Shown here: positions 5,816-26,420 of the stretch, piece by piece
How the letters are laid out: every line of letters begins with the position of its first letter
Position numbering within the stretch: the stretch's first letter is position 1
Source of the DNA: a virus
Reading direction: 5' to 3' (one strand)
DNA: 64,000 nt
IMG/VR virus record: IMGVR_UViG_3300025141_000063
Coordinates: 1 to 64,000 of that record
Translations under genes and position numbers: made by a program
The notes under the pieces: model-generated
Databases searched by the model: none
The model's input: the letters and a program-made list of their open reading frames with translations, nothing else
What the model was told of the DNA's origin: nothing

Positions 5816-6008
5816 GTTCAACTTCCTGGCGGAGCCGATGGATGCCGAGGAGGTGTTCGTGCACCTCTGCCCGTCTTGCATGGGGAGGGTGGCCGAGCTC
5901 TCCATGAAGAAGCACCGGGAGCGGGTCGCCGCAGAGGCCCGGAAGCGTCCGTACCTCGATCCCAAGACCATGAAGGTCACCCACCCGGAGGTGGACGGTG
6001 GCTCGTAG
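5808..6008 (+). CDS. small hypothetical protein with CxxC
   Basis: 66 aa, HLCPSC; start and stop overlap the neighbouring genes. Confidence 0.55.
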   Translation: MSEFNFLAEPMDAEEVFVHLCPSCMGRVAELSMKKHRERVAAEARKRPYLDPKTMKVTHPEVDGGS

Positions 6009-7119: not shown

Positions 7120-8009
7120 TTCCCCTCTTCCTGGGTCACGCCCGATCCAGTGTAGCTACCTCCGGTGGCGAGGTCACCGATCGCGGGCACTTTCGCCCCC
7201 TCGGTCTTCATGATGAACTTCTCGAACTCCTTCATGTGCTTGCCAAGGCTGTCGCCGGCGGAGCGCCGAGCGTCAGCGATGTTCCGCACCTCTCGGGACA
7301 GCTCGGTCTGCATCCGCACGGTCGCTTGGTTGGTGCCCCGCCCGTCGAGCTCCTGGAAGCGGAGGTAGAGGGACTGCTGCATCCGTCCCATCATCTGCTC
7401 GCTCTCCAGCTCGAGCTTCATCCCCAGCCGGTGCAGGGCCACGTCGGGGCCGCCCCGAAGCACAGCAAGCCGCCGATCCCCGCCCTCCCCCAGGTCCCGC
7501 AGGCAGAGAGCCCACTCTCCCAGGGACATCACCGATGGGTTGAAGTAGTAGTGCTGGTAGGCGGAGACGATCCCCTCGGACACAGCCGTGCCGTACTTGT
7601 CCTCGACGAGCCGGGCGATCTGAACCGCGGGCACGTGGCCCAGCAGCCCGGTCTCGACATCCTCTCGGGCGTGCCCTGCCCCCAGGAGGGAGGTGGCCTT
7701 CTTGGCCTCGTCCGAGTCCTGGAACATGGCGTCGACCTGAGTCTCCCGCCAGTACCGCCGGTGCCCCAAGCAGTCCCTCTTCCGGGGCAGGTAGGGGCTG
7801 GGGCGGAGCCGGTGGCCCAGCATGTCCTCCCGCTCCTCCTCGAAGCTGTCCTCGTCCAGCGTGAAGAGCCCGAGGCTCCCCAGCGTGCGATTCAGCTCCT
7901 CGGAGTCCGACATCCCCATCAGGAGCAGGTACCTGATGAAGAAGCGGGACGGGTGGTTCTCGATGAGGAGGCCTCCCTCGATCACCTGCACATGCGCGTG
8001 CGCCCTCAC
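7116..8009 (-). CDS. hypothetical protein
   Basis: 297-aa ORF with 4-nt overlaps at both ends. Confidence 0.7.
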   Translation of the reverse strand: MRAHAHVQVIEGGLLIENHPSRFFIRYLLLMGMSDSEELNRTLGSLGLFTLDEDSFEEEREDMLGHRLRPSPYLPRKRDCLGHRRYWRETQVDAMFQDSDEAKKATSLLGAGHAREDVETGLLGHVPAVQIARLVEDKYGTAVSEGIVSAYQHYYFNPSVMSLGEWALCLRDLGEGGDRRLAVLRGGPDVALHRLGMKLELESEQMMGRMQQSLYLRFQELDGRGTNQATVRMQTELSREVRNIADARRSAGDSLGKHMKEFEKFIMKTEGAKVPAIGDLATGGSYTGSGVTQEEGK

Positions 8010-10000
8010 TCAGTGCCTTCCTCGCTGTCGGTCAGTCCGGTCTGGCCCAGGACCTTCAGCTGCTGCACCGTCTCCTCCAGGGCGAAGAGCGCCTGCCGGA
8101 CCGCGTCCTCGGACATGGGCTTCAGGCCCACCCGGGTGGCGATGAGCAGGTCGGCGAGGTGGTGCACGGCGCTCTCCATCTCCGGGAGGTAGCCGATGTA
8201 CATGCGGACGTTCTCGGGCCGCAGGAAGTTGAGGCCGAGGATCTGGTCCACGGTGACCGAGTCGTCGACTTCGAGGGCGTGCTTCACGAGGCAAGTGCGG
8301 TGTCCATCGAGCGTGCTGGCGAGGCCCGAGACGGAGGCCGTCTTCTCCCGCTGCACCAGGTCCGCGGGCGTCAAGGACCTGACCCCCTCGATGCGGGTCA
8401 TGCCCCGGCGCTGCACGCTGGCCAGCTTCTCCTTGGCGTACTCGGGGGCCACACCCATCGCTCCGAGGATGAAGAGGGCGTCCGCCTCCTTCACCTGCTT
8501 GAAGTGCTGGCCCTGAACGGTGTCGAGCAGCGGGCTCCGCAGGGTGTAGGTGCCCCCGCCGCCCACGACGTCGACGTAGTCACAGCCGACGCGGGCCTGC
8601 TTCTCGATGCCCGCGGCGTCCTTCAGCTCCAACTGCTTGTTGGCGAGCTTCCAGAAACGGAAGAAGGTGGGGACCGCGTAGTGGTTCTCGGCGAGCTTGA
8701 CCGGGCCGTCCTCCAGGTCGGGGAGGAGCTCCAGGTAGGCCTCCTTGCCGAGGGCCGACTTGACCATGATCATCTGCTGGTCGCCGCGGGCGACCAGACC
8801 CTGTACCTCGAAGGGCACGGTGGCCACCTTGGTGCGGGGGTTCACGAGGTAGCCGAAGCCTTCTACCCTGCTGCTCCCTGTGGGAACGAGCGTGCCTGCC
8901 GATTTCGTCGTCGCGTGCACCTCGGGACTCAGCGAGTACCCCAGGTGGCTGTAGGCCAGCTTCACGCCGGGCATGTCGCGGCCGTCGAGGTTGCGGACCT
9001 CGGTGTAGACGCCCATCGGGACGCTCCGGTTGGGGGAGTCGTACATGCCCGCTTCCTTCACCAGGAAGGGCTCGGGGTACTTGGTGTCCTCGTACGTGGT
9101 GGCGTGCTTGACGATGGTGAAGGAGTCGTTGGGCTCGAGGTCCATGACCTCGTCCCCTGCGATGGCGCGGGCTCGGTCAGCCGGGATCACCTCCATCGCG
9201 GGCTCGAAGCTGGAGTGGCTGGCGGCCTTGAGCAGGAAGGTGCCGTCGTACTGGCGCTCGATCTGCACCACGTCCGGGTCGGTGAAGCGCGGCGATGCCG
9301 TCTTCTCCACGCCGGGGCCGTTGGCGATGGCCTGCAGGAAGGGGCCGACCGACTCGTGCCGCTGAACGGCCCAGGCCGTCGCCGGGTCTTCGAGGGCCGT
9401 GGCGATCTTGGCCATGTCGTCCCGATGGAGGGAGCCGGACAGCATCAGCGCTTCGAGGAGGAAGGGCGGCTTGCCGGAGGCGTACTTGCCCAGGTTCATG
9501 CCCTGGCCCGAGACGCGACCGGGCAGGTGGCCGGCGAAGCCAGAGTTGTAGCCGGGAGGGAAGAGATCAGAGGCGATGTTCTTGTCCGGCGGTGGCACGT
9601 CGGCCCCATCGAACGTCTCCGTCATGTGCATCTCTTCGCGGATGCGCTTCTCCGTCAGTGGGCAGGCCGTCTCGCCCCGCATGTAGATGTCGAAGGGGTA
9701 GAGCTGCCAGTCCTTGATGATCAGCAGCACGCGCAGGTGGTTGACCGGCTTGTTGCCCGCCAGCTCCTTGACGGAGCGCTCGGTGGGGTTCCGGACGGAG
9801 ACGAACCCGAACCCGTAGCCCTGCGCGGCGTCCAGGTTGGTCAGGTGCACGTCGATCTCGTAGTCGGCGAGGTACGGGCACTGCTGGGTGACGGCGCTCA
9901 TGATCACACGCGGCCACTCCGAGGTGTCGCCAGTCATCCGCGTGAACGGGACCGCGATCTTCTCGAAGGTGAGCTCGGGAGGGGTGACGAACAGTTCCAT
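8006..10000 (-). CDS. K-x-A-rich putative head/core (scaffold-like) protein, 664 aa
   Basis: AGGAG RBS upstream of ATG 10000; 20 of 32 lysines are followed by Ala at +2 (hand count); structural-operon context. Confidence 0.7.
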   Translation of the reverse strand: MELFVTPPELTFEKIAVPFTRMTGDTSEWPRVIMSAVTQQCPYLADYEIDVHLTNLDAAQGYGFGFVSVRNPTERSVKELAGNKPVNHLRVLLIIKDWQLYPFDIYMRGETACPLTEKRIREEMHMTETFDGADVPPPDKNIASDLFPPGYNSGFAGHLPGRVSGQGMNLGKYASGKPPFLLEALMLSGSLHRDDMAKIATALEDPATAWAVQRHESVGPFLQAIANGPGVEKTASPRFTDPDVVQIERQYDGTFLLKAASHSSFEPAMEVIPADRARAIAGDEVMDLEPNDSFTIVKHATTYEDTKYPEPFLVKEAGMYDSPNRSVPMGVYTEVRNLDGRDMPGVKLAYSHLGYSLSPEVHATTKSAGTLVPTGSSRVEGFGYLVNPRTKVATVPFEVQGLVARGDQQMIMVKSALGKEAYLELLPDLEDGPVKLAENHYAVPTFFRFWKLANKQLELKDAAGIEKQARVGCDYVDVVGGGGTYTLRSPLLDTVQGQHFKQVKEADALFILGAMGVAPEYAKEKLASVQRRGMTRIEGVRSLTPADLVQREKTASVSGLASTLDGHRTCLVKHALEVDDSVTVDQILGLNFLRPENVRMYIGYLPEMESAVHHLADLLIATRVGLKPMSEDAVRQALFALEETVQQLKVLGQTGLTDSEEGTE

Positions 10001-10008
10001 GGGATCTC

Positions 10009-11133
10009 CTATCCTACCTGCACCTTCGAGGACATGGCCAAGGCCATCGCCTTCGACGAAACCTTCGCGGCAGATACTACCGCAGCACATGAAGCCGGCG
10101 TGGGGGTAAGCGCCTGCAGGGCTGTGAGCAAGGGCTGCAGTGCGGCGTTCAACTCCGTGCCCTTCACGACAGGACTACCACCCCCGGCCAGTTTGAGCGA
10201 CGTCAGAGTGCCGGAGCTCTTTTCCAGTAGCGCCTCCAGCGCGCCCCCGTTGGCGCCGAGGTGGATGATGCCGGCGTTCACTTTGAAGCCCGGCGAGTCC
10301 GTCTTCACGTCCGTCGCAGCCGAGAGCTTGACCGCCTGGGTAGTGGACTTGATCTCGACGTCTTCCTTCGCCTGAAGCAAGATCGACTTCTCCGACTTCA
10401 GGGACCACGCGCCCTTCAGGACCCAGGACACGCTGCCGTCCTTTGCGACGTCGAGCTCCACCTGCACCGTCCTCCCGTCCTCCCCCTTGTCGTACACCTT
10501 GAGGCTCAGCGCCGAGGACGTCGCGGAATCCCCGTGCTGCCCCAAGATCAGCTCAGCGAGAGGGTGGGGGTCGTCGGCCTGCTCCTTGGCGAAGATCTTG
10601 CACCTGGTGGGCCGGCTGCCGGTGGTCGTAGTCTCGTCCCGATCCACCTCCCAGAGGAAGTCCCCTCCGAAGGCACGCAGGTGGTAGCTCTCGCACAGGT
10701 CCCGGATGATGTTGTTGATCGGGATGTACATCCGCTGGGCCAGGGGAGTCGCCTGGATCTGCACCACCCCGCCGCGCCGTACGAACACTGAGTTGCCGTC
10801 CCGCGTCCCCAGGTAGATGTCGCCGGGGTTCATGGGGCGACGGCTGGAGTCGTAGCTGCCCTCCTCGTTCCAGACCATGCCGAACCCGAGGATGAAGGCG
10901 CGGTCGCCGATCTCACTGGACTGGCACACCCAACAGGTCGCGCCCGGCTCCGGCATCACAAACATGCCCTCGCCCTCCGCGTAGTGCACGTAGGGCGCCA
11001 TCAACGGGATGCGGTCCCACCTGCGGGAGGACGACTGGGACGCCACGCTGACCGAGTAGCGGGCGACGTTGACGTCGTAGACCACGCCTGTCTCGATGAC
11101 TGGGGGGCCGAAGACCCCTGTCGCGTGCGACAT
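10009..11133 (-). CDS. baseplate spike/hub protein (gpV/gp5/VgrG-like)
   Basis: N-terminal OB-fold-like segment (GVVYDVNVARYSVSV...GEGMFVMPEPGATCWV) followed by beta-rich repeats. Confidence 0.6.
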   Translation of the reverse strand: MSHATGVFGPPVIETGVVYDVNVARYSVSVASQSSSRRWDRIPLMAPYVHYAEGEGMFVMPEPGATCWVCQSSEIGDRAFILGFGMVWNEEGSYDSSRRPMNPGDIYLGTRDGNSVFVRRGGVVQIQATPLAQRMYIPINNIIRDLCESYHLRAFGGDFLWEVDRDETTTTGSRPTRCKIFAKEQADDPHPLAELILGQHGDSATSSALSLKVYDKGEDGRTVQVELDVAKDGSVSWVLKGAWSLKSEKSILLQAKEDVEIKSTTQAVKLSAATDVKTDSPGFKVNAGIIHLGANGGALEALLEKSSGTLTSLKLAGGGSPVVKGTELNAALQPLLTALQALTPTPASCAAVVSAAKVSSKAMALAMSSKVQVG

Positions 11134-14100
11134 CAGGTGCCCTTCCGGGCCCAGCCCCTGCGCTTGCGGCGCAGGGCGGGCGGGGTGCGATTGGCCTTGC
11201 GTACGCTCTTCAAGATCTTGTCCGTCGTCGCGCTGGGCATCGACGGGAGGACCCCGCGCCCCGTCTTGGAGCCCTTGGGGGCGACCCCCTTCAACCCCTT
11301 CTCGGGGATGTAGAGGGTGCGGTAGTCCACCGTCACCTCCTCGCCAGCGTCCAGGTCACGGAGAGCCACCATGAAGCGGGCCTTGCCCTTCTTCTTGACC
11401 TCTGCGGTGGGTCGGGGGCTGTGGTTGGTCTTCTTGCCCTCCGATGTCTGCATCCCCCGCTCGTCGAAGGCGACGGCGACGGCCTTGCCCTTCTTGACGG
11501 GCCCGTCGGTGAAGAAGCCCTTGCCGTGGATCTCGGAGTCTCGGATGGCTGCCGCCTTCGAGTGCAGGACCGCCTCGGCCGCTCTGGGCGCCTCTGCTCG
11601 AGCCTTGGGGTTCGTGATGAACTGGCCCGCCAGCCGAGCCAGCGCGAGCGCCCCGAGCTCGGACGGAGGCTTCTTGGGCGCCATGCTGTGCAGGGCCGAG
11701 AAGTTCCTCGCGTGATCAGGGGAAGACACGAAGGCGTGGAAGGCGTCCTTGGCTTGGCGGCGGAGGACGGGGTTCTTCTTCACCTGCCCGGCGGCCGAGA
11801 CCAGCTTCCTGGGGCTGGGAGACCCGAGGAGCGGCAGCACCAGCTCCCTCAGCTCTCGAGCACGCTTCTCCCTGCCGGAGAGCAGCTTGCCCTGCAGGTG
11901 GTCGTCCCAGTCCTTGGCCGTCTTGCCGGACTCGTCGGTGAAGAAGCCCTTGCCGTGGATCTTGGAAGGAGCGACGGCCGCCTGCTTCTGCAACGGGATC
12001 CTGTAAGGCATGACCATCATCTCGTTGTGCAGCTGCTCCTGCAGCAAGAACTTCGAGGGGAATCGCTGCGGGCGCGCATCGCTCGAAAGGGCGGGCGCCT
12101 CCGGGTGCTTCTTTCTCCACGCCGCGTACTGCGCGTGGAGAATTTGGTGATGGTCGTCCCCCTCCTTAAAGTCGAACCGAGCGCCAGGGTGCTTGGCCCA
12201 CGCGGCGGTGCCTTGGTCCGCCGCCAGGATCTTCATGTTCTTCGCTCCCAACGACCTTCCGGCGCGCAAGCCGGCCTGCATCACCGCTCCCCCGATCCCC
12301 TTCTTCCTATGCTCCGGCTTCAAGTACAGGGACGCCCCGTACACGTCCCACGTCCCTTTTCGCCTCCGCTTCAAGCTGACAGTGGCGCCGTGAGGCACCG
12401 CCCAACTCTTCTGCGTCGCATCACTACCATCGGGCGCCCTGATCGGGATAGTGGCGTCGGGAGCCATCACCCCCAGGAAACGACGAGTCTTCACCGGGCC
12501 GAAGCTGTAGCCCTCGGGCAACTTCGTCCCGGCAAGCTGCCTCTCGACGTGCTGCTTCAACACCTTCGGCCGGTCTCGCCACCGCGTCTTCGCCAGCAAC
12601 TTCGACGCGGTCTTGGACTGCTCCTCGTCCACCTCCTTCTGTGCGCGACGCCGCATCACCAGGGCGGTCGAGATGCGCTTGCCGCGGACGGCCGCTGTCT
12701 TGGGGTTCTTCTGCCCGCGGCGGTAGGCCCCATACGCCAGCGCTGCCACAGCCAGGGGAACAATGGCGTGCCCCGCCATTGTTCCCGCCCGTCTTCCGAT
12801 CAGAGCGGCCTTGTCCGGGCCGTGCACCGCCTTGGAGACTGTCCGCGATGAGTCCTCAAAGTCCACTGGTGCCGTCGCGAAGCCCTCGGGGGTGAGCTTC
12901 CCCTTGTACGCCGCGTCGATCAGGTTGCTGCAGGTGTACTCCTCCCTCTCTCTGGCGCGAATCAGCTTCTTCCCCACCAAGGAGACCGCGGGGTCCGGGG
13001 TCAGCATCCCAAGCCCCGTGGCGGCCAGCCCTGTGTTGTCGTAGTCCTTGCCCACCTGGCGCTCGGCGAAGGTCACCGCACGGCGACGCAGCTTGTCGTT
13101 CTTCGGCGCGACGATCTTGTACTTCTTGGTGGCGAGCTGCTTCCGGATGTCGGTCTTCATGACCCCCTGCCCAATACGGGCCTCAACCATCTCGCCGTCG
13201 CCAACGTAGATGCCCGCGTGGGTGAAGCTCCCCTGCAGCGCCTTCGACGTCGCGACGAACCCGCGGTCGAAGAGCCGCCCTCTGCGCGTGGGCCGCTGGG
13301 ACTTCTGCGGAGACATGAGCACGATGTCCCCTGGCGCCAGGGCGTCGAAGTGCTCCTGTGCCATCGCCGTCTTCATCGCCGGGGCCTCGGGTGCTTCAGG
13401 GGGCTTCGGAGGCTTCGGGGGCTGTGGCGGCTTGGGCAGCTTGAAGATCTTGCCGCCGGACTCCACCTGCGCGGCTCCCTGCGGAGCCCCGAACCGGCGG
13501 ATCTGCTGCCGCAGTGCGGCCGGGGCGTGGACCATGCGCTGATCTTGCCCTGCATCGGAGGCGGCAGTCCTCCCTCGTCGAAGCGCGGAGTACGCCTTGT
13601 AGGCTGGGTTGCCTCGATACTGCTTCGTCGGGGCGTTCGAGATGCCGCCCTTCCGGCGGATGAAGCCGAAGGCCCGCTTCTCCACGGAGGCGGTGACGTC
13701 CATCTGGGAAGCCGCCGCAGCGATATTCCTCACCGCCCCGAGCCGACGGGTGGCGGGCCCGCGCTGTCTGGCCAGGGTAGCCGCGCTCCGCCGCGCGTGG
13801 GAGGTCGCCGCGGCCGTGTTGCCCCTAGCCCGCTGCGCGACTGCGCGGCGGGCATGTCCGTACCCCGTAGGACGGACCAAAGAGACCTTGCCCGTCTGCT
13901 GTCTGACCCTCCGTGCCGTAGTTCTGTGCCTGGCGAGGCTCCTTGCAAGATCTCGCCGCTGAGCAACAGGCCTCATGGCTCCTGCCACGCCAGCTACAAG
14001 TCCTGCGCCAGACGCAGATGGGGTGTTGGTAGCCACGTTCGTGGCAGCATGGGTCAGCCGAGGCATGCGCCGCGCCGCCGCCCCCCAGAGATCCACGGCC

Positions 14101-16220
14101 TTGTCGTTGAGGTAACCCGCCTGCTTCTGCATCGAGGCTTCCTGGGCCTTCCGCTCCCGGCGAGCTCGGAGGAGGCGGTGCACTCCGTACCCTGCCAGCG
14201 CCGTCCCACCGATGACTGCCCCGCCGATGGCCATCTGCCTGCCTGTCGGACGCCATCCGGTGCGAGGAGCTGCGGAAGTCGTTGCCGGGGCAGTCGTCGG
14301 AGCGGGACGAGATGCGACCACCTTCTCCGCGACCTGCTTCGCTACAGGGTTGGCCGGGCGAGAGGCCACCACCTTCGCAGCAGCCTGCTGAGCCACTGGA
14401 GCTGCGGCCGGGGCTACGACCTTCTTCGCAACCGCCTGGGCGGCGGGAGCAGCCGCGGGGCGGGACGCTACGACCTTCTCTGCCGCCCGCCTCGCTACTG
14501 CAGGAGCGGGCTTGGCCGCCGCTTCCTGAGCCTTTGCAGCGGCAGCGTCCCGCTGCTTCTTGAAGGTAACGGGGTCGATGCCGGCCCTTCGGGCAGGGCG
14601 CTCGATGTCCCGGTGATACCTCTGGTTCTCCAGAGTCTGCTTGTGCCAGAGCATCTCCTCTTTCGGCCTGCCCGTCCTGACCTTCTCCTGGAGGAACTCA
14701 TGCAACTCCCTGTGCCGGTGCTCCACCGGGCCCGCTCGATTCTTGAGCAGGTGTCGACTGCGCTGAAGTTGCGCCTTGTCCCACTTATCGCCGCCTTCGC
14801 GGACCTTCTTCTCGAGGTCCCGGCTGTCCAGGTACTCCAGCCGCTTGTACGTCTGCACGTCCTGGCGGGACGGTCCTCCCGGCCTCCACTCCGGCTCAGC
14901 AGGTCGCGTGAGCGTCGAGGGATCCCGATTTCGCAGGTACCGGGGCTTCCCGGCCGTCTTCTCCAGATCGGGGAAGGTACGATCCGTCACCTTCGAGCGT
15001 AGAGACTTCGCATACTCCAATAGCCTCCGACGGTTCTCAGGGGTGTCCTCCATCTTCGCCGTCGCCCATAGAGGGGCCAGGCGATTGGCCGAATCACGCT
15101 CGTTCGGGTACAGCTGCACGTCGAAAGCGTCCCCCGCCCTCCGCATGCGTACGTTCGGCTTGTCGAGCAGCACCTTGTTCGTTCTGGAGGAGACGTCCCC
15201 CAAGTGCCTCTCGGGCCCGTCTCTCTTCTCGAACCACTTCTCCAGCTCACTCCATGGCAAGTCTGGGGTTGGAGGCAGCCTTTCCTGCCCCTTGAAGTGG
15301 AAGTCTCGACTCTGGTTGTCTAGCGCCTGCGCGACTCCGCCGAAGTACTCCGGAACAGGCTTCATGGCGTGATAGCCCCTACCCGCCAGGGCCCCTACTC
15401 CTCCCCCAACTCCAGCGCCGATGAGGCCCCGCTTCAGCTTCTTGCCCTTCTCCGCGCTCGTGGCACCGACGGCGGCTCCCGTCGCTGCACCGAGGCCCGC
15501 GCCTACCAAGGTGCGCTTGTGCTTGGACGTCAGCGGCACCCACGCCTCCTTCACGGTCTCCCCCGGCTCCTGCAGCACCTTCGCCACCATCTCCTGCACG
15601 AGCGCCCACAGCCCCTCACGAGTAGCAACTGCCGGTTGACGTTCTCCCATGGGTGCGGGGGATTCCGGAAAATCGGTCCGCAGGTGCGAGGCGATTGCAC
15701 GGACCTGGTCCATGTCGAGCTCAGTGAAGCCTCGGCCCTTGTTCAGGTTCTGCAGCCACTCCGCCGTATGCCGAGGCGTGCTGTACCGCCGCTCTTTCCA
15801 CAGCTGTGGATGGAGGCTGTGGGGAACTCCGTGTCGAGTGAAGAGGGCGATGGTCTGGTCGAGGCCAAACTTGTCGCAGGCCATCTCGAGGTGGATGGTC
15901 GGGCGGAAGTCCCGGAGGTACTCCTCGTCGGTACGAGCGTCGATGACGTGCCCGAGGTCGTGGTACCCGGACCAGGCCCGGTCCTCCAGGGAGACGGGGA
16001 CACCCCGCCGGCGCATGGCGAGGTAGATGACCTTGTTGACCTCGTCCTGCGCGGCGTAGCTGGGCATGTCCTCCAGCACCGTCAGGTCGTAGTCGTACTT
16101 CGCCAGCTCCCCCTCCAGGTTCGAGAGCACGAGCTTCCATGCTCGGCCCTCCTCCGCTTCGGGAGGACGCGCTTCCGCGGCCCCCGTCTTGACGAAGGAG
16201 GTCAGGTCGTCAGTACGCAT
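11133..16220 (-). CDS. 1695-aa modular polyprotein (zincin-like, glycine-zipper/TM segments, permuted papain-like YiiX/C92 amidase, GNAT, SET)
   Basis: HDLGH...LEMACD; PGDIVL...THAGIYVGDG...VGKDYD...YTCSNL; LKPEHRKKGIGG; HGKG...NHS...GEEVTVDY; modules separated by K-x-A motifs; ATG 16220 overlaps the 3' end of the RNAP gene. Confidence 0.8.
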   Translation of the reverse strand: MRTDDLTSFVKTGAAEARPPEAEEGRAWKLVLSNLEGELAKYDYDLTVLEDMPSYAAQDEVNKVIYLAMRRRGVPVSLEDRAWSGYHDLGHVIDARTDEEYLRDFRPTIHLEMACDKFGLDQTIALFTRHGVPHSLHPQLWKERRYSTPRHTAEWLQNLNKGRGFTELDMDQVRAIASHLRTDFPESPAPMGERQPAVATREGLWALVQEMVAKVLQEPGETVKEAWVPLTSKHKRTLVGAGLGAATGAAVGATSAEKGKKLKRGLIGAGVGGGVGALAGRGYHAMKPVPEYFGGVAQALDNQSRDFHFKGQERLPPTPDLPWSELEKWFEKRDGPERHLGDVSSRTNKVLLDKPNVRMRRAGDAFDVQLYPNERDSANRLAPLWATAKMEDTPENRRRLLEYAKSLRSKVTDRTFPDLEKTAGKPRYLRNRDPSTLTRPAEPEWRPGGPSRQDVQTYKRLEYLDSRDLEKKVREGGDKWDKAQLQRSRHLLKNRAGPVEHRHRELHEFLQEKVRTGRPKEEMLWHKQTLENQRYHRDIERPARRAGIDPVTFKKQRDAAAAKAQEAAAKPAPAVARRAAEKVVASRPAAAPAAQAVAKKVVAPAAAPVAQQAAAKVVASRPANPVAKQVAEKVVASRPAPTTAPATTSAAPRTGWRPTGRQMAIGGAVIGGTALAGYGVHRLLRARRERKAQEASMQKQAGYLNDKAVDLWGAAARRMPRLTHAATNVATNTPSASGAGLVAGVAGAMRPVAQRRDLARSLARHRTTARRVRQQTGKVSLVRPTGYGHARRAVAQRARGNTAAATSHARRSAATLARQRGPATRRLGAVRNIAAAASQMDVTASVEKRAFGFIRRKGGISNAPTKQYRGNPAYKAYSALRRGRTAASDAGQDQRMVHAPAALRQQIRRFGAPQGAAQVESGGKIFKLPKPPQPPKPPKPPEAPEAPAMKTAMAQEHFDALAPGDIVLMSPQKSQRPTRRGRLFDRGFVATSKALQGSFTHAGIYVGDGEMVEARIGQGVMKTDIRKQLATKKYKIVAPKNDKLRRRAVTFAERQVGKDYDNTGLAATGLGMLTPDPAVSLVGKKLIRAREREEYTCSNLIDAAYKGKLTPEGFATAPVDFEDSSRTVSKAVHGPDKAALIGRRAGTMAGHAIVPLAVAALAYGAYRRGQKNPKTAAVRGKRISTALVMRRRAQKEVDEEQSKTASKLLAKTRWRDRPKVLKQHVERQLAGTKLPEGYSFGPVKTRRFLGVMAPDATIPIRAPDGSDATQKSWAVPHGATVSLKRRRKGTWDVYGASLYLKPEHRKKGIGGAVMQAGLRAGRSLGAKNMKILAADQGTAAWAKHPGARFDFKEGDDHHQILHAQYAAWRKKHPEAPALSSDARPQRFPSKFLLQEQLHNEMMVMPYRIPLQKQAAVAPSKIHGKGFFTDESGKTAKDWDDHLQGKLLSGREKRARELRELVLPLLGSPSPRKLVSAAGQVKKNPVLRRQAKDAFHAFVSSPDHARNFSALHSMAPKKPPSELGALALARLAGQFITNPKARAEAPRAAEAVLHSKAAAIRDSEIHGKGFFTDGPVKKGKAVAVAFDERGMQTSEGKKTNHSPRPTAEVKKKGKARFMVALRDLDAGEEVTVDYRTLYIPEKGLKGVAPKGSKTGRGVLPSMPSATTDKILKSVRKANRTPPALRRKRRGWARKGT
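11504..11962. repeat. exact 30-nt direct repeat (11504-11533 and 11933-11962)
   Basis: CGTCGGTGAAGAAGCCCTTGCCGTGGATCT occurs twice, encoding IHGKGFFTD on the minus strand. Confidence 0.9.
14300..14490 (-). repeat. Ala/Pro/Lys-rich coding repeat (KVVASRP x3 plus one KVVAP variant)
   Basis: AAEKVVASRPAAAPAAQAVAKKVVAPAAAPVAQQAAAKVVASRPANPVAKQVAEKVVASRP inside the polyprotein. Confidence 0.75.
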
Positions 16221-19200
16221 AGGGCTTCTTCTTCGTGCCCTTGCCGAACTCCGTGCCCCTGACAAGGCCGGGGATGGGACTGGTCCCGTGCAGGTCAGAC
16301 TTCCAGCCCTGCGCGCCGCCTTCCATGAAGGTCTTCTTCAGCTCGCGGTAGTTGAGGCGGGACATCCAGTCCTCGGAGCCCGCCATGGACACCTCCTGGA
16401 CACCCTTGAGGATCGGGGTGATCTCTGCCTTCTGCCCCCCGCCCTTGCCGATGTCCCTGTTCGCCCGCTGCAGCTTCGTGGTCGACACGACGTCGCCCCG
16501 AAGGAAGCCGGAGTCGCCGGGCTGCCGGACCGAGGAGAGGTTGGTGAGGGTGCGGACCACGGTCTCCATGTTCCTCTTCTTCACCCTGCCACCGTAGGCG
16601 CCGTGCATCTCGTCGGTGAGGTAGCCCTTGACGCTCTCGATGCCTGCCACTTCGAGCAGGTGGTGCGGGTTGACGGGCCCGGAGGATAGCGCCTCGCCCA
16701 GGCCGACGGGGATCATCATCTTCCCGCGCAGCCCCTCCATCACCTTGGCGGTGGGCTTGTTGCGGGCGGGGATGTAGTGGTCCTTCGGCTCCGGGTGGTA
16801 CTTGCCGAACCGGTCCTTACCCCTGATGTAGACACGCCAGCCGCCGGCAGGGTCTGCGGATGTCCGCATGATCTCCCCCTTGTACGAGGAGATGGTGGCC
16901 TGGCCAGGTACCTTCTTTGTCAGGTGCAGCAGCTGCCCCAGCCGGGTGAAGGAGTCCGTGCGGTTCGTCTCGCCCTTGCTCACGACGCCGCCGGTGTGGA
17001 AGGCGTTCATCGAGAGCTGGGTCGCGGGCTCCCCGATGGCCTGGGATGCCCAGATGCCGACGTTCGACCCCATGGAGGGCTTCTTCCCGGCCTCGGTCAC
17101 GCCGTAGCACATGGCGCAGATGCCCTCGGACTGCTCGCACTTCAACGGGGAGCGCACCAGGACCATCTCGACGCCGGAGTTCTTGATGCGCGTCAGCACC
17201 TCGGCGGTCAGCAGGGTCTTCGAGGGGACGTCCCCTCGCTTCAGCTTCACGGGGGCGGCGGCATACCTGTCGTGGATCTCCGGGTCACCAGTGGACATCA
17301 GCACGCCCTGCGTCGTCCCGCAGTCCTGTGACGTGATGATCTGGTTCATGGTGGCGCTGACCAGGTCCTTGGTCAGCTCGCCCGGTGCCTGGGTGCCCTT
17401 GACCTTGCCGAGGGTGCCCATGCGAGCGCCTGACAGGGACGCCCAGTACTCCGCCGCGCTGAGCCCCTCGGAGTAGCTCTTCTTGATGGGGATGGGGACC
17501 GCAGACCCGTTGGGGTCTGTGACGAGCACGGGGGCCAGGGTGAGCTGCTTGAACTGGTCCCAGTTGCCACGAGCTCCCGACTCCACCATCTCGTACATGC
17601 GGTTGCCGGAGCCCTTCATCTTCGCCTGACCCTCGACGTTGATGTCCTCGAGGGCAGTCATGTACGCCTCGACCACCGACTCGTCGCGGCTCTTCCCGCC
17701 CTTCTGCAGCGCCAGCGCCTTCTTGTCCGCCTTGGCGAAGTGCTTGTCGCGTATCTCGGGGCGGGACAGGACGTCCTGCAGACTGAAGGAGAAGCCGGTG
17801 TCGTAGGTGTACTTGTTGCCGAGCTGGTTCAGCTTGTTGACCGTGACCGAGAAGCCCTTCGGGTCTCGCTTCGCCATCTTGGTGAGCAGCTTCTCCACCT
17901 CCCGGCTCTTCAGCACCAGCGTCTTGTCCGTGAGGACCTTCTGCCGCTCCAAGGAACTCGAGGGGAAGCAGTTGGAGAGCATCAGCCGGCCCACCGTGGT
18001 CTGAACCATCCCGGCCTGCTTGACCAGTGAGGGCTCGGGCAGGTAGCTCGCCACGCCCTTGGGCAGCCGCCAGGAGCTGGCAGTCTTGGTGATCTGCGAA
18101 GAGCCGACGGTGATCACGTCCGAGATGCCCAGCTTGCCCTTCTTGTACGCCTTCATCGCCTCGTCGGCGGTGCCGAAGGAGCGCTTGCTGTCCTTGCCCC
18201 ACTTGCTCAGTTGGTACAGCCCGAGCTGTGCCTCCTGCCCGGGCAGGTTCATCAGGCCACCGGACGACGCGCTGAACAGGTTGTTCGAGGGCACCATCCC
18301 TCGCGCTTCCTCGATGGCTTCCTCTGTCAGGGGGACGTAGACCGAGGTGGTGTCGCCGTCGAAGTCTGCGTTGAACCCGGAGACCACGAGCGGATGGATC
18401 TGGATCGCTTTGCCCTTCACCAGCTTCGGGTTGAACGCCATGATGCTGTGCTTGTGCAGGACGGGGTCGCGCTTCATCATCACCGGCCGCTTCTTGACGA
18501 CCTCCTCCAGCGCACGGACTGCGACCGGGTCGTTCTTCTTCACCGCCAGCTGCGCCTGCAGAGGGGAGTAGCCGAAGACCTGCACCAGCTCTCGCACGAT
18601 GAAGGGCTTGTACATCTGCATCGCGGCCTTGCTGGGCAGCCCCACCTCGTCCAGGTCCATCGACTGCTCGGGGATGATCGTGGACCGCATGGACAGGTCC
18701 ATCTTGCGGCCGATCATCTTGCTCTGGAAGTAGCCGGACTTGGGCTGGGATCCCTTGACCGTCTCGAGCACACCGCGGTAGTGCCTGCCCTGGTACTTCT
18801 GCCCGTCCATGGTCAGCGCCTTGAGCCCGTCGTAGAGCTCCTTGTAGAGCGGCACCTTCTGGCTGGGCGGCAGACCTGTGTCGAAGTCCTTGAGCTTCTG
18901 GTTGGTGAGGGAGAGGCCGCGGTAGAGCTGGTTCACATCCGCCGACGTCGTGGCTCCGCTGTCCAGCACGGAGACCGGCCGGAACTTCGGAGGCATGATC
19001 GGAATGTGCTTCCGCATGTAGGCCTCGTCCGGAGACATCCCCGTCTCCTTGAGGGCCTGGAGGTAGCGGACGCGCCGGCGCAGCTTGCTGAGCTTGTACT
19101 TCCGGGCTCCCTTCAACTCCTGCAGCGTCTTCGTCAGCTCCTTGTCGATGTCGATCTTCTTCAGGGCGTCCTGGATCGCCTCGGTGCCTGTGCCTGTGCC

Positions 19201-22200
19201 GATTGTCTTCTCGTGCCCGATGACCTGCTCCATCTCGCCCCGCTTGAGGTCGAGCAGGGAGGAGATGGCGGTCTCGAACATCGGGTTGGGCAGGGCGACG
19301 TCCAGGGTCATGTGTCCCCAGGACTGCTGCGCTGCGTGCTCGGGGTGGAGCGAGCCGAAGATCTTCTCGTCGAAGATGCCGCCCTTCTCCGCCTTCATGT
19401 CCTTGCCTCGGAACATGCGGCCGGGGTCGGTGACGCCCCCGTTGCTCAGCTTCAACACGTCCTTGTCCACGAGGGGCTTGAGGTGGAGCTGGTTGCCCCG
19501 CTTCTCCGTGTCGAGGCCCATCGTCTTCAGGTAGCCCTCGAACTTCTCGTAGGTGAACGGGATCTTGGGAGGGGGCAGCGCCTGTCCGGAGTGGAGGGCG
19601 TTCCACATGTCGGGGTTGTAGTCCGACTTGAGGGTGAACATCTCCCGCAGGTTGTGGCGGGCTCCGTGAGCCAGCATGGCGTACACACCCAGGCCGCCCA
19701 GGGCCTGTGCGCTGGAGCCGCCGCCGCCCTTGGGGGACATGTCCAGGCTGTAGGGAGACCCGGTGCCACCGGCGCGGGCGGTCATCTTCTTGGCGACCTT
19801 GTGCTTGAGCTTGAGGATGTACTGGTTCCCCACCAGCACCTCGCCCATCGCCTTGCCCGTGGTCGGGTCGAAGAGGGTCTCGTTGTCGGACAGGCCGTGC
19901 TCCTTCAGCTCTCGCTGAATCTCCCGGCCGTAGTCCGCCTTCCCCTCCTGGGGGAAGTTGTCCACGAGGTAGGGCTTGCCCGTCTTCTCTGAGATCTTCC
20001 CGGCCAAGGTCTCCAGCACCTGGCCGACGTTGATGCGGGAGGGGACGCCGTGGGGGTTCAGGGCGACATGGATCTGCCGACCGTCCTTGGTGGCGGGCAT
20101 CTCCTTATCCTGCATGACGCGGGAGATGATTCCCTTGTTGCCGTGCCGGCCGACCAACTTGTCGCCGACCTGCGCCGGCTCCTCCGTCTTGATGTGGACC
20201 TCGATCTTCTTCTGGGTCTTGATCACCCGGACGACCCTGCCCTTGTAGCCCTTGTCCCAGAGCACCGCGCGGTTGGCGTAGTCCTGCACCTTCGAGCGCT
20301 TCAGCGCCTGGTAGGCCGCGGCCTCCGACCCGATCTCTCGGAGCTGCAGCTTGGCGATGAGCAGGTCGCCCTCCTCCACCAGCTCGCCGTCCTTGATGAC
20401 CCCAGAGGGGTCCAGCTTCGCGGTCTGTGCCGTGGTCACTGTCCCGGGGGAGACATGCGCCAAGTACTTGTCGCGGCTCATCACCGAGTTGCGGTCGAGC
20501 GACGCGTCCACCCGGTACATGTGGAGGCTGGTCAGCATCGTGGAGGCGGTCTGGGAGATGACCACCCCGTCCTCGTAGTTGTAGCCCTTGAAGGGGACGT
20601 AGCCGACCCGAAGGTTCTTGCCGATGGCGAAGGTGCCCTTGTCGGTGAAGTTGGTGTCCGCCAGGAGCTGTCCCCGCTTCACCCTGTCGCCCACCTTCAC
20701 GCGCATGTGCGCCTCGATGTAGGCCTCGTCCTGGTTGAGGGGGAAGTCCTTGTAGACCTGGACCGTGTGGTTGTCCCCGTCGGGATCCTGGATGGTCACA
20801 GCGTCCTTCACGATCTGCACCACCTTCCCGTCGACCGGGGCCTGGTGGGAGTTGAAGGACCCCATGATGTTCTCGAAGGTAGTCCCCGACTCCGTCGCTG
20901 TCTGGACCATCGGGGCTTCCCGATGCTTCAGGGAGACCGCCTGTTCCTGCTGCCGGGAGGCAGTCATGGTCCGGTTGCCCTGGTTGTTGTGCAGGAAGGG
21001 GATCAGGTTCGTGGGCAGGGAGTACATCGCCTTGGACGAGAGCATCACGTGCGTGACCTCGTTCCACGGGCGCATCATCACCTCGTTGCCCGTGCCGGCG
21101 ACCGCCACGTTCTTCGGGTCCTTCGGCAGCGGCATCTCCCCGGACCACTTCACCTGGTCAGCGAAAGCGATGATGTAGTTCTGGAAGTCCTGCGGCTTGA
21201 CCTTCTCAATCGACTTGGTCTTCTTGTTGTACAGCTGCACCAGCAGCCCCAGCCCCTTCTTCTCCACGCCGATGGGGAGCTGCAGGGTGATGCCTGTCTT
21301 CGCTCCTTCAGGGGTGGTGATGGGGTCCAGGTAGGTGAGGTGGCTGTCGTTGATCCGCAGGGCTTCCTTCGGCACCTTCTGCGGGTCGGAGATGGCGCCG
21401 GGCCCCATGATCGTGGTTCGCATCTGCCCGGACACGAACTCCAGGGGGTTCGTCTGGTTGGGGAGCTGCGCCAGCGACGTGGAGAAGAAGGAGTTCAGGG
21501 GCTTGCCGAAGACCGCGGGGTTCACGATCTCTCGGACCTTCATCTTCTGTCCGTCGAGCCCCTGCCTCAGGCGGCGCCCGATCTCCCCGCGGGAACGGTG
21601 CAGCCGGTCAGCGAGGTGGTCCTCGGTGGACAGGATGTCCTTGAAGGCCAGAGACTCTCGGTCGTCCGGCTTGATGTCCCCTCGTGCCAGGCCGAGCAGC
21701 TTCTTCGAGGAGGTCAGCATCGCCTCCCCGTTGACCACGTTGAAGGACTTGCCCAGCGTGAGCTTGGTGCTGTCCTCCCGGAGCTCCGCGGCAGCCATGG
21801 TCTCCCGGACCGCGGTGCGCGCCTCGTCGAGGTCCTTGGCCACGTGGCCCGTCGTCCTCTTCAGCACCTTGTTCAGGGACTGGAGCTGCTTCTTGTCGTC
21901 CCCGAACTTGCTCACCGAGGCGTCGTAGATGTCCTTGCCCCACGCCTTCTTGATCTTGTCGTCGGACTCCCCCATCGCACGGAGCACGGGGTACAGGCCG
22001 ATGTTCTCCATCGTCCCGAACTTCAGGGTGAAGACCCGCTCCTTGGGGTTGAAGAAGGACCAGAAGCGGTCGGCCTTGGCGCCGTCCCACTTGTTGATGT
22101 TCCACTGGGTGACCAGGCGTCCGGCCTCGTCCTCCCGGTGGTAGACGCCCGACTTCAGGCGGAACTGGTTGTCGACCTGCCGCTCCTTGCCGTCGACGAT

Positions 22201-22503
22201 GTACGAGTAGCGGCGGGTGATCTTGGGGACGCGGGCGACGGTGATCGTCGAGCGGTCCAGGACATCGCCAGTGGCCTTGTCGATCAGGGAGACTCTGGCC
22301 TTGACGGGGACTGCCCAGGTCCCGCCCTGCAGCTTCGCGTGCTGTTGGGATCTGATGTCGTCGAGCTCTAGGTTGTCGTCGACCCAGACCTTGTCCATCT
22401 CGAGCCGTCGGTTCTGCCCCTCGAATGGGAAGTGGTCCCCCACGGCTTTCGCCACGCGGGTCTTCATGATCTCGAAGGCACCTTCTGGGTCAAGCTGGGC
22501 CAT
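16210..22503 (-). CDS. rpoBC: single-chain DNA-directed RNA polymerase, fused beta and beta' subunits (2097 aa)
   Basis: beta motifs TPEG, GYNYEDG, GDKLVGRHGNKG, NPHGVPSRINVGQ, LKLKH; beta' motifs KRDPVLH, NADFDGD (18352-18372), TTVGR, SGARG, bridge helix, CEQSEGICAMC, AIGEPATQLSM. Confidence 0.95.
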   Translation of the reverse strand: MAQLDPEGAFEIMKTRVAKAVGDHFPFEGQNRRLEMDKVWVDDNLELDDIRSQQHAKLQGGTWAVPVKARVSLIDKATGDVLDRSTITVARVPKITRRYSYIVDGKERQVDNQFRLKSGVYHREDEAGRLVTQWNINKWDGAKADRFWSFFNPKERVFTLKFGTMENIGLYPVLRAMGESDDKIKKAWGKDIYDASVSKFGDDKKQLQSLNKVLKRTTGHVAKDLDEARTAVRETMAAAELREDSTKLTLGKSFNVVNGEAMLTSSKKLLGLARGDIKPDDRESLAFKDILSTEDHLADRLHRSRGEIGRRLRQGLDGQKMKVREIVNPAVFGKPLNSFFSTSLAQLPNQTNPLEFVSGQMRTTIMGPGAISDPQKVPKEALRINDSHLTYLDPITTPEGAKTGITLQLPIGVEKKGLGLLVQLYNKKTKSIEKVKPQDFQNYIIAFADQVKWSGEMPLPKDPKNVAVAGTGNEVMMRPWNEVTHVMLSSKAMYSLPTNLIPFLHNNQGNRTMTASRQQEQAVSLKHREAPMVQTATESGTTFENIMGSFNSHQAPVDGKVVQIVKDAVTIQDPDGDNHTVQVYKDFPLNQDEAYIEAHMRVKVGDRVKRGQLLADTNFTDKGTFAIGKNLRVGYVPFKGYNYEDGVVISQTASTMLTSLHMYRVDASLDRNSVMSRDKYLAHVSPGTVTTAQTAKLDPSGVIKDGELVEEGDLLIAKLQLREIGSEAAAYQALKRSKVQDYANRAVLWDKGYKGRVVRVIKTQKKIEVHIKTEEPAQVGDKLVGRHGNKGIISRVMQDKEMPATKDGRQIHVALNPHGVPSRINVGQVLETLAGKISEKTGKPYLVDNFPQEGKADYGREIQRELKEHGLSDNETLFDPTTGKAMGEVLVGNQYILKLKHKVAKKMTARAGGTGSPYSLDMSPKGGGGSSAQALGGLGVYAMLAHGARHNLREMFTLKSDYNPDMWNALHSGQALPPPKIPFTYEKFEGYLKTMGLDTEKRGNQLHLKPLVDKDVLKLSNGGVTDPGRMFRGKDMKAEKGGIFDEKIFGSLHPEHAAQQSWGHMTLDVALPNPMFETAISSLLDLKRGEMEQVIGHEKTIGTGTGTEAIQDALKKIDIDKELTKTLQELKGARKYKLSKLRRRVRYLQALKETGMSPDEAYMRKHIPIMPPKFRPVSVLDSGATTSADVNQLYRGLSLTNQKLKDFDTGLPPSQKVPLYKELYDGLKALTMDGQKYQGRHYRGVLETVKGSQPKSGYFQSKMIGRKMDLSMRSTIIPEQSMDLDEVGLPSKAAMQMYKPFIVRELVQVFGYSPLQAQLAVKKNDPVAVRALEEVVKKRPVMMKRDPVLHKHSIMAFNPKLVKGKAIQIHPLVVSGFNADFDGDTTSVYVPLTEEAIEEARGMVPSNNLFSASSGGLMNLPGQEAQLGLYQLSKWGKDSKRSFGTADEAMKAYKKGKLGISDVITVGSSQITKTASSWRLPKGVASYLPEPSLVKQAGMVQTTVGRLMLSNCFPSSSLERQKVLTDKTLVLKSREVEKLLTKMAKRDPKGFSVTVNKLNQLGNKYTYDTGFSFSLQDVLSRPEIRDKHFAKADKKALALQKGGKSRDESVVEAYMTALEDINVEGQAKMKGSGNRMYEMVESGARGNWDQFKQLTLAPVLVTDPNGSAVPIPIKKSYSEGLSAAEYWASLSGARMGTLGKVKGTQAPGELTKDLVSATMNQIITSQDCGTTQGVLMSTGDPEIHDRYAAAPVKLKRGDVPSKTLLTAEVLTRIKNSGVEMVLVRSPLKCEQSEGICAMCYGVTEAGKKPSMGSNVGIWASQAIGEPATQLSMNAFHTGGVVSKGETNRTDSFTRLGQLLHLTKKVPGQATISSYKGEIMRTSADPAGGWRVYIRGKDRFGKYHPEPKDHYIPARNKPTAKVMEGLRGKMMIPVGLGEALSSGPVNPHHLLEVAGIESVKGYLTDEMHGAYGGRVKKRNMETVVRTLTNLSSVRQPGDSGFLRGDVVSTTKLQRANRDIGKGGGQKAEITPILKGVQEVSMAGSEDWMSRLNYRELKKTFMEGGAQGWKSDLHGTSPIPGLVRGTEFGKGTKKKPYAY

Positions 22504-25550: not shown

Positions 25551-26420
25551 CTATGCCGCCTTCTTCGAGAGGAGCCACGCGAACTCTTGCGCCTGCTCAG
25601 CTTCTTGTTGACGCCTCATCATCATGTAGTTGTGCGCCACCAGCAGCTTCGCACAGACCACGTCCTCCGGAACATCGTCGCTCAGGTCAGGCTCCTCGCC
25701 CGTCTCCCCCAGCATCTGCCTCCACCGAGCAGCGACGGCCCGGGGATCATTCTTGAAGTGGCGCTCGATGTTCCGGCCCACATCGTCCGGGATGCCGCGA
25801 GCAGGCTTCAGGTTCAGTGACCTCTCGTCCATGTCGGGGTCGAACCGGCCGACGCAGACGTCGCACCTGCCGTCGGCGAGGTCGTCGTCGTCCTCGTTCC
25901 CGCAGTCCGTGCAGACATAGGTGGGCTGTGCCACCAGCCGCTGTGCGAAGGACAGGGGCGCCGGGAGGAACCAGACGCCCCTCTCCATGGCGGAGGCCGC
26001 CACGAAGCGTCCGACCTCCTCCTCGTAGGGGTGCTTGCGGATGTCCGACACCATATCCACGGCCGCCATCATCTGCGCCACCGTGGGCTGCTGGAGCGTG
26101 AAGAAGTCGGGGATGTTGTTGTTCAGCGCCTGGGTCAGCGGGGAGAAGACCTCCCACACGGACCAGAAGCCATCGGCCACCAGCAGGTTGCGCACCGCCT
26201 GGATCTTGTTCTTGTTGAGGGCACTCACCGTCACCGCGTGCGGGCGGGAGTAGTGCATCTGGAAGCGGGACGAGAAGTCCTGCTCGATCTCGTACCAGAG
26301 GGCCTCCGAGTCCCACTCGAGCCAGTCCACTCCGAACTGCGCGAACAGCAGTCCCGCCAGCACGGCGGGGTGCGCGTCGTGGTAGCCGAAGAAGAGAGCT
26401 GGTGCCTCAGGAAGAGCCAC
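25551..26420 (-). CDS. hypothetical protein with Zn ribbon
   Basis: 289 aa, CTDC...CDVC; immediately upstream of the portal. Confidence 0.65.
   Translation of the reverse strand: MALPEAPALFFGYHDAHPAVLAGLLFAQFGVDWLEWDSEALWYEIEQDFSSRFQMHYSRPHAVTVSALNKNKIQAVRNLLVADGFWSVWEVFSPLTQALNNNIPDFFTLQQPTVAQMMAAVDMVSDIRKHPYEEEVGRFVAASAMERGVWFLPAPLSFAQRLVAQPTYVCTDCGNEDDDDLADGRCDVCVGRFDPDMDERSLNLKPARGIPDDVGRNIERHFKNDPRAVAARWRQMLGETGEEPDLSDDVPEDVVCAKLLVAHNYMMMRRQQEAEQAQEFAWLLSKKAA

Follow-up and report, generated by a model that had tools for sequence, protein, structure and literature searches.

Does a phage that makes a cellular-type RNA polymerase (RNAP) as one long chain cut that chain in two after translation? 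The question is raised by IMG/VR record IMGVR_UViG_3300025141_000063, a sequence of 72,143 bases (65% G+C; 38% complete by CheckV) of which we analyzed a 64-kb stretch, referred to here as the window. A single open reading frame (ORF) on its minus strand encodes a fused beta-beta' RNAP, designated P0001, and shortly before the conserved TTVGR motif of its beta' half lies an insert bounded on both sides by the triplet K-x-A (lysine, any residue, alanine). A prediction made earlier from the letters of the DNA (the original prediction) held that a maturation protease excises a peptide at this place and leaves the polymerase as two chains. We combined homologue alignment, phylogeny, motif counts, and structure prediction across the phage family to which P0001 belongs. 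Our preferred reading, to which we give a probability of roughly 0.45, is proteolytic nicking of the polymerase at this loop into chains of about 1475 and 600 amino acids (aa).

Position and Distribution of the Polymerase Loop

Pfam searches located Rpb2_6 (E 7e-61), Rpb2_3, and Rpb2_7 in the first half of P0001 and Rpb1 domains 1-5 in the second half, and the presence of both sets in one chain identifies P0001 as a fused beta-beta' multisubunit RNAP. The beta' catalytic motif, NADFDGD, occupies residues 1378-1384. A single polypeptide that combines this motif with both domain sets, beta and beta', is what characterizes the Arash-like, or metagenomic "mReC"-type, fused RNAPs (the mReC sequences are those of Weinheimer and Aylward 2020, PMC7481178). 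P0001 is 30-32% identical to the polymerases of the closest isolates, Salmonella phage Arash and Vibrio phage D69, which belong to the same family. Relatives of its beta' half are numerous (13,710 at E <= 1e-3 in a HMMER search of 1.84 billion representative proteins), and many of the best 150 of these matches are fused proteins of 2050-2100 aa. An arrangement of beta' as two genes, of the cyanobacterial, plastid, or Arash/D69 type, does not apply to P0001, which is a single ORF of 2097 codons.

The original prediction placed the insert at 18010 to 18095, of which the first coordinate is right and the last is two bases too far (the coding stretch is 18010-18093; Table 1). It was also said to lie immediately before TTVGR, which is close; exactly, three residues (MVQ) stand between them. 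The K-x-A flanks that had been noticed are real (K-T-A at residues 1473-1475 and K-Q-A at 1495-1497), and they are kept where the interior of the insert diverges.

We evaluated how widely the insert occurs using three sets of homologues. A MAFFT alignment of the junction took in 124 of 151 sequences, those with both flanking anchors, and gave D-V-V-T-V / G-G-K-x / T-T-x-G-R, with a four-residue turn, as the norm of the phage family. Only 10 sequences in this alignment, among the closest relatives, have 14-33 extra residues, a few others have 1-4 more, and nearly all of the rest have the short turn. The short turn is found in 49 of 80 related viral loci, with 4 extra residues in 1 and inserts of 8-29 aa in 7; a further 10 end the polymerase gene at the turn, 6 lack the whole helix-hairpin subdomain, 4 have no anchor, and 3 are unclear or cut by a contig end. 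The third set, 67 further homologues from a 5.8-billion-protein collection, consists of 56 with loops of 3-7 residues and 11 with inserts. Across the insert clade the extra length ranges from 8 to 35 residues.

Phylogenetic reconstruction with FastTree (66 sequences, 951 columns, midpoint root) put the insert-bearing polymerases into one clade nested among short-turn, unsplit ones. Because of this nesting, the long loop is, on the tree, a secondary gain in one clade and the short turn of 3-5 residues is the ancestral state of the phage family. The term "insert", as used in the original prediction, therefore holds against the phage family, where 10 of 124, 7 of 80, and 11 of 67 sequences have one, and not against cellular beta'. 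Actinobacterial chains align through the stretch almost gap-free (residues 470-805 of the Streptomyces beta' chain 8dy7_D align to query residues 16-348), so relative to cellular beta' there is no insert at all.

The helix-hairpin subdomain that carries the insert site (36-47 residues) is absent from the polymerases of loci L032, L038, L045, L051, L064, and L077, and it must therefore be dispensable in part of the family.

The structure of the loop was addressed with an AlphaFold2 (AF2) model of P0001 residues 1000-2097, built from 41 aligned sequences (mean predicted local distance difference test score, pLDDT, 86.5; predicted template modelling score, pTM, 0.81). Structure comparison using VIA-align against 48,161 PDB representatives matched the model to M. 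tuberculosis beta' (6edt_D) across its whole length (Z 31.1, root-mean-square deviation 3.5, 1025 residues aligned). The longest segment below pLDDT 50 is residues 1474-1495 (475-496 in model numbering); it has no secondary structure and lies between the two K-x-A triplets, with flanking strands at 1463-1468 and 1500-1502 (model 464-469 and 501-503). The model, whose confidence is lowest here of the whole beta' half, predicts that the insert extends as a disordered loop from a hairpin tip in Rpb1 domain 3 and that a K-x-A stands at either base. Four more K-x-A triplets occur in the modelled half (residues 1131, 1292, 1542, and 1594); these are in helices or at their ends, within 10-residue blocks of mean pLDDT at least 89. 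The alignment of homologues and the surface-loop check suggested with the original prediction both came out in its favor, as a clade-specific and predicted-disordered loop at a hairpin tip.

An intein or other mobile protein insertion was considered as the origin of the loop and rejected: the insert is only 28-35 residues long, compared with at least 130 for a Hint domain, and P0001 has no Pfam Hint match. Inteins are frequent in the portal, polymerase, terminase, and protease genes of the family, and those in polymerases stand at places other than the insert site (the stretches concerned in the genome G002 are L091:560-6412, L091:7306-14478, and L092:2353-5292, and many of the homologues P0003-P0151 also bear inteins). 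Polymerase homologues of 2400-4700 aa also occur, with a common alignment break at about residue 1385, beside NADFDGD.

Conservation of K-x-A in the Inserts

A bare pair of K-x-A triplets is unremarkable in this protein. P0001 contains 10 K-x-A (13.3 expected) and one pair spaced 15-35 aa apart, and 500 shuffles yield 1.8 +/- 1.7 such pairs on average. It is the conservation and the context of the pair that are remarkable. The C-terminal end of the insert carries K-x-A in 20 of 24 distinct inserts and K-x-[S/G]-A in the other 4, and L, F, or M usually stands two residues before the lysine. Among the first 16 inserts that we collected (these count the insert of the window twice and so represent 15 distinct ones, the 9 others coming from the later homologue set), K-x-A was found in 13, against 5.7 expected from shuffling the residues of each insert. 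At one end of the three distinct long inserts (those of the window, P0157, and L005/P0158) ITKTA[S/A] is kept and at the other [L/I/V]-K-[Q/E]-A-[G/A], with 18-20 diverging residues in between; the N-terminal K-x-A is missing from the shorter inserts. As to homologues without K-x-A, which the original prediction had counted against itself, the inserts all have the triplet or its K-x-[S/G]-A variant, and nearly all short loops are without K-x-A (it occurs in 1 of 155 short loops in one set and 0 of 56 in the other).

The C-terminal part of the insert, PEPSLVKQAGM (window 18004-18036, minus strand), resembles PEPFLVKEAGM in a 694-aa protein of the window (9044-9076, minus strand) at 9 of 11 residues and 26 of 33 bases. 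No other 11-mer of the polymerase matches another protein of the window as well, and the pair stands at the end of a tail of 39, 3, and 1 windows of that length with 7, 8, and 9 identities. We considered a recent DNA copy as the source of the likeness and dropped it, as the likeness is roughly at chance level and the base differences are synonymous.

K-x-A as a Signal in Head-Module Proteins

The same triplet recurs in the head modules of the family. Two proteins of the window, of 694 and 529 aa, contain several times the expected number of K-x-A (Table 1), which is the top pattern of all residue pairs at spacing 0-2 in both (Poisson p 2e-11 and 8e-5, respectively) and the top spaced dipeptide in most of their orthologues. 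The 694-aa orthologues (46 distinct sequences) have 600 K-x-A against 186 expected, a ratio of 3.22, and the 529-aa orthologues (26 sequences) have 316 against 100, a ratio of 3.15. Control patterns in the same orthologues (A-x-K, R-x-A, K-x-S, K-x-G, K-x-V, and E-x-A) gave ratios of 0.5-1.1. Between 33 and 39% of the lysines in the two families are part of a K-x-A, and the enrichment persists in relatives down to about 25% identity. The roughly 970 sites in head-module proteins give the consensus [L/F/M]-[E/V]-K-[L/T/V]-A-[S/A]-[A/V]. One site of the 694-aa family, L601-x-K603-x-A605, hardly varies at all; it lies about 90 residues before the C-terminus.

Searches for the identity of these proteins had limited returns. 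The AF2 model of the 694-aa protein (mean pLDDT 76) found no convincing fold match among the 48,161 PDB representatives (best Z 5.7 over 84 aligned residues, a helical bundle), and its sole match in BFVD was an uncharacterised homologue (E 2e-47). A Pfam search at E <= 1 with 17 small head-module ORFs gave nothing usable.

K-x-A also stands near the N-terminus of the capsid proteins. It was found at residue 24-29 in all five that we examined (from G001, G002, G003, G007, and Arash gp226), directly preceding a conserved IRDRLRE-like stretch; G007 belongs to the insert clade, and in Arash gp226 the triplet is K-E-A at residues 27-29. The complete 193-kb genome G002 encodes a capsid protein (PHROG 2522) with K-I-A at residues 24-26 and, just upstream of it, a charged, acidic, scaffold-like protein of 317 aa with 9 K-x-A against 4.9 expected. 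In Arash, gp220, gp222, gp223, and gp225 are enriched as well. The capsid gene is absent from G000, G005, and G006, which include the phage of the record and its closest relative.

A candidate for the protease that might read this signal was found among the relatives. Arash gp222 matches PHROG 18299 ("head maturation protease", E 2e-6) and PHROG 2774 (E 6.5e-14). Its conserved domain of about 220 aa is flanked on both sides by K-x-A in Arash, D69, and G002. Two inteins interrupt the candidate in G002; one of them follows an F-K-H-H motif and the other precedes C-E-H-L, positions that hint at the location of the active site. Pfam models of the S77 and S78 proteases matched nothing in the record or four relatives; the S77 search says little because that model was also silent in all control genomes. 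The occurrence of K-x-A in internal head proteins, at capsid N-termini, and around a protease-like domain is the pattern expected of motif-directed head maturation.

Natural Break Points in Beta'

The position of the loop coincides with a place where relatives break the gene. Arash gp206 (1525 aa) ends in NTPIKIG and gp216 (606 aa) begins with MMTQIITPGALL (start MMTQIITPG); in D69, the first chain ends in PIKIVAMT and the second begins with MAEVFAAGALRI. In both, the gene break falls exactly on the hairpin turn before TTxGR where P0001 has its insert, and the same is true of the 10 split loci among the 80. Since Arash, D69, and these loci are split there, the insert site tolerates a break in the chain. 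The two-chain form of the original prediction thus has a counterpart in relatives, which make chains of about 1525 and 606 aa from two genes split at the turn. The termini of the split forms are short and carry no K-x-A. The new N-terminus predicted after a cut at K-Q-A, GMVQTTVGR, would align in register with those at which the second chains of the split forms naturally begin. A distance of 4.8 kb and nine genes, including genes on the opposite strand, separates the two halves in Arash, and in the tree the split forms are a single clade, far from the insert clade.

We searched the Arash/D69-type break for an intron and found nothing in Rfam at E <= 0.1. At a different break, in the beta part of its polymerase gene, D181 does have a group I intron together with a homing endonuclease gene (Rfam RF00028, L004 2934-3214, 100.7 bits, E 1e-25); D69 is without it.

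The original prediction compared the insert with the split of cyanobacterial and plastid beta' into RpoC1 and RpoC2, which is close by and not at the same site. Structure comparison aligns residue 3 of cyanobacterial RpoC2 (8syi_Z, Z 28.1) to model residue 515, or P0001 residue 1514, and residue 6 of tobacco plastid RpoC2 (8w9z_c, Z 21.2) to model residue 517. This maps the cyanobacterial and plastid split to about 1513-1516, after TTVGRLMLSNCF, some 16 residues past the insert and beyond the TTVGR strand. The beta'N chains of the jumbo phages AR9 (7s00_d, Z 18.7) and phiKZ (7ogp_A, Z 16.1) stop aligning at model residues 435-441 (about 1434-1440 of the full chain), approximately 30 residues before the insert, which puts the Arash-type split between the phiKZ-type and the cyanobacterial points. 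These split positions are approximate because the alignment ranges give only the first and last aligned residues.

Proposed Processing and Alternative Explanations

We propose that the head-maturation protease of this phage family most likely recognizes K-x-A, with the wider consensus [L/F/M]-[E/V]-K-x-A-[S/A]. The fused polymerase, probably packaged in the virion, would be loaded into the prohead, where cuts after A1475 and A1497 would free a peptide of 22 residues; the chains 1-1475 and 1498-2097 would stay together as one enzyme. Such a cut would be the post-translational counterpart of the Arash/D69 gene split at the same turn. There is a precedent for prohead processing of a virion RNAP, in that the beta subunit of the phage 201phi2-1 enzyme is stated in PMC5694885 to lose a propeptide to the prohead protease. 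The account of Arash virion preparations in PMC10585845 lists Gp206 with the most spectra (3516) and Gp216 with 1210, so that both chains rank with the most abundant proteins there.

Several observations weigh against this reading. The 116 proteins of the Arash proteome, as listed in PMC10585845, include obvious non-structural enzymes, and its authors allow for carry-over. Arash gp222 has no Pfam or PDB sequence match, and its assignment as a protease depends on one PHROG match at E 2e-6. The 72-kb record contains no protease, scaffold, or capsid genes, the head genes beyond the terminase being absent. The polymerase family as a whole is only a little poorer in K-x-A than expected (893 against 1014, ratio 0.88). 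Since the inserts are one clade, their shared motif does not represent many independent events, and since most of the family has neither an insert nor K-x-A at the turn, a break there is no general requirement. Finally, most of the 20 K-x-A of the 694-aa protein are in confidently folded parts and only about 2 in segments with pLDDT under 50, which fits uneasily with simple protease access.

The strongest alternative is that the insert is a surface loop that varies among lineages and is never cleaved, with K-x-A kept for local structure (such as capping of the strands at the loop base) or by shared descent. In cellular beta' chains this position is occupied by loops of 10-30 residues, the site tolerates a gene split and, in 6 loci, even the loss of the 36-47-aa subdomain, the inserts are monophyletic, and the K-x-A pair does not exceed chance in P0001. 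Set against these points, the interior of the loop diverges freely, yet the K-x-A triplets and the [L/F/M] at -2 are kept in 24 distinct inserts, even in one as short as GLREKTAATAA, and unrelated proteins of the head module contain some 970 copies of the same extended motif. The predicted disorder of the loop also leaves the motif with no evident structural role. We regard an uncleaved loop as possible, if rather doubtful.

K-x-A might also be read by something other than a protease, either as a docking or loading signal for incorporation into the head or as the target of a lysine-modifying enzyme, which would make it a tag without scission. The weakness of the protease assignment, the many K-x-A in folded regions of the 694-aa protein, and the weak SET and GNAT matches of the 1710-aa protein encoded next to the polymerase would all suit this explanation. 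The SET/GNAT part is not conserved in K-x-A-enriched relatives, however: the orthologues in L008 and L009 are about 760 aa long and align over about 204 aa. Moreover, a fixed short distance to the capsid N-terminus and a position on both sides of a protease-like domain are the classic pattern of maturation cleavage, and the preference for S or A after the alanine recalls the A-S sites of assemblin. We consider a tag of this kind unlikely.

That two K-x-A flank an ordinary loop by chance would agree with the shuffled sequences of P0001, and the 9 of 11 likeness to PEPFLVKEAGM is within what the number of comparisons allows; conservation of the motif across 24 distinct inserts and its absence from nearly all short loops leave this explanation very little room. 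Least probable of all is a scar of an earlier gene split later re-fused, in which an old C-terminal tail and an N-terminal extension are read through: the insert does stand exactly at the Arash/D69 gene split, and the explanation was rejected on the tree, where the insert clade is nested among unsplit sequences far from the single split clade, and on the split-type termini, which are short and without K-x-A.

Returning to proteolytic nicking, we hold tentatively, and at somewhat short of even odds, the wider proposal that a phage family of about 180-190 kb uses K-x-A as its head-maturation code and that one clade grafted this code onto a polymerase loop, converting the 2097-aa chain to 1475 + 600 aa in the prohead. 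The cut could also act as a maturation switch, the polymerase staying inert while still in the producing cell. Activation of the enzyme or easier ejection, as suggested in the original prediction, are guesses as to its purpose.

Genomic Context of the Polymerase Gene

The window codes for a large terminase, helicases, a family A DNA polymerase, a primase, and further phage replication proteins. The portal protein encoded upstream of the polymerase matches Arash gp204, annotated as a portal (30% identity, E 1e-78), and D69 VPHD69_0259 in BLASTP searches, and the gene order portal, small gene, polymerase is conserved in relatives. Directly downstream of the polymerase gene is the gene for the 1710-aa polyvalent protein, which has weak matches to a glycine zipper, a C92 papain-like amidase, GNAT (E 8e-5), and SET (E 9e-5). 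It is probably an ejected multi-enzyme protein, of which only the N-terminal ~200 aa are conserved in relatives. Genes for a C-5 cytosine DNA methyltransferase and RNase HII lie between the structural and replication blocks.

Table 1. Coordinates of the polymerase gene, its loop, and other features discussed in the text (window positions unless a locus is named).
Feature	Position	Strand	Remarks
P0001, fused beta-beta' multisubunit RNAP gene	16210..22503	minus	One uninterrupted ORF, 2097-aa translation
Insert ITKTASSWRLPKGVASYLPEPSLVKQAG, residues 1471-1498 of P0001	18010..18093	minus	From translation
N-terminal flank K1473-T-A1475, context Q-I-T-K-T-A-S-S	18079..18087	minus	Kept in long inserts
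C-terminal flank K1495-Q-A1497, context S-L-V-K-Q-A-G-M	18013..18021	minus	Fits family consensus [LFM]-[EV]-K-x-A-[SA]
TTVGR motif, first codon (T1502)	17998..18000	minus	Strand after the loop begins here
Portal protein gene, 669 aa	23541..25550	minus	Upstream neighbour of polymerase gene; BLASTP
694-aa conserved protein	8006..10090	minus	K-x-A 20 observed, 2.8 expected
529-aa protein with glycine-zipper-like segments	26407..27996	minus	K-x-A 15 observed, 4.5 expected
1710-aa polyvalent protein	11133..16265	minus	Directly downstream of polymerase gene
C-5 cytosine DNA methyltransferase	4017..5522	plus	
RNase HII	5998..6630	plus	
Candidate protease family	L100:2238-3710 (Arash gp222); L002:23218-24630 (D69); L092:8237-12253 (G002)		PHROG 18299

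Comparison with Known Systems

The closest counterparts are Arash gp206 and gp216 and the enzymes of the Vibrio phages D69, D148, and D181, which consist of beta-beta'N and a separate beta'C. They have in common with P0001 the polymerase family, the neighbourhood after the portal gene, and the position of the break, and Arash and D69 also have the enrichment of K-x-A in the head module and the K-x-A near the capsid N-terminus that are seen in the family of the window. They differ in that their break is genetic, with no loop or K-x-A at the ends, whereas P0001 is one ORF with a loop (28-35 residues), and the two belong to separate clades. The gamma (RpoC1) and beta' (RpoC2) chains of cyanobacteria and plastids are likewise naturally broken shortly after the double-psi beta-barrel, in the same small region; that break is genetic and not proteolytic, and it lies on the other side of the TTVGR strand from the insert. 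The phiKZ/AR9-type RNAPs of jumbo phages, which comprise virion and non-virion enzymes, are phage-encoded and cellular in type, with beta' broken after the double-psi beta-barrel into beta'N and beta'C.

Bacterial beta' has a loop of similar length at the same position, between the active-site domain and TTVGR, and the Streptomyces (8dy7_D) and M. smegmatis (5tw1_D) chains align almost gap-free. The phage family differs from bacteria in its ancestral turn of 3-5 residues, with the long loop gained in one clade. To our knowledge, no bacterial beta' loop at this position is cleaved.

Motif-directed proteolysis also matures the heads of other viruses: T4 gp21 cuts at L/I-x-E, phiKZ gp175 at S/A/G-x-E, and herpesvirus assemblin between A and S. 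Such systems use a motif of three residues, the middle one free, many times over in scaffold or internal head proteins, near the capsid N-terminus, and at the end of the protease domain, and K-x-A is distributed likewise. The motif of the family of the window is K-x-A and not the x-x-E of T4 and phiKZ, and its candidate protease matches PHROG 18299 and not Pfam S77 or S78. The trimming of the 201phi2-1 polymerase concerns an N-terminal propeptide at an x-x-E motif, whereas the candidate in P0001 is an internal loop at K-x-A. For SPN3US gp245, PMC5694885 gives the motif S/A/G-x-E and describes auto-cleavage of the protease, and a copy of the phiKZ-type virion RNAP is described as packaged and ejected (PMC7598289, PMC5694885). 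Our literature searches found no K-x-A prohead code and, for cleaved virion RNAPs, nothing on the phage family of the window.

Implications for the Phage Family

If the polymerase is nicked as we propose, this would be a cellular-type RNAP split by a virus after translation, and proteolysis would have re-invented the gene split to which a sister lineage (Arash, D69) came at the same residue. The cut would fall where genes have also broken, once at the same turn and twice more within about 75 residues (in cyanobacteria and plastids, and in phiKZ-like phages). The region would then stand out as a seam in the structure of beta' and offer a natural experiment on why large polymerase subunits split. 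The recognition of K-x-A as the likely processing code of a large, mostly uncultured phage family may matter more than the loop itself, since such a code would make it possible to predict, with nothing but the sequence, where head proteins, scaffold, and cargo begin and end once mature.

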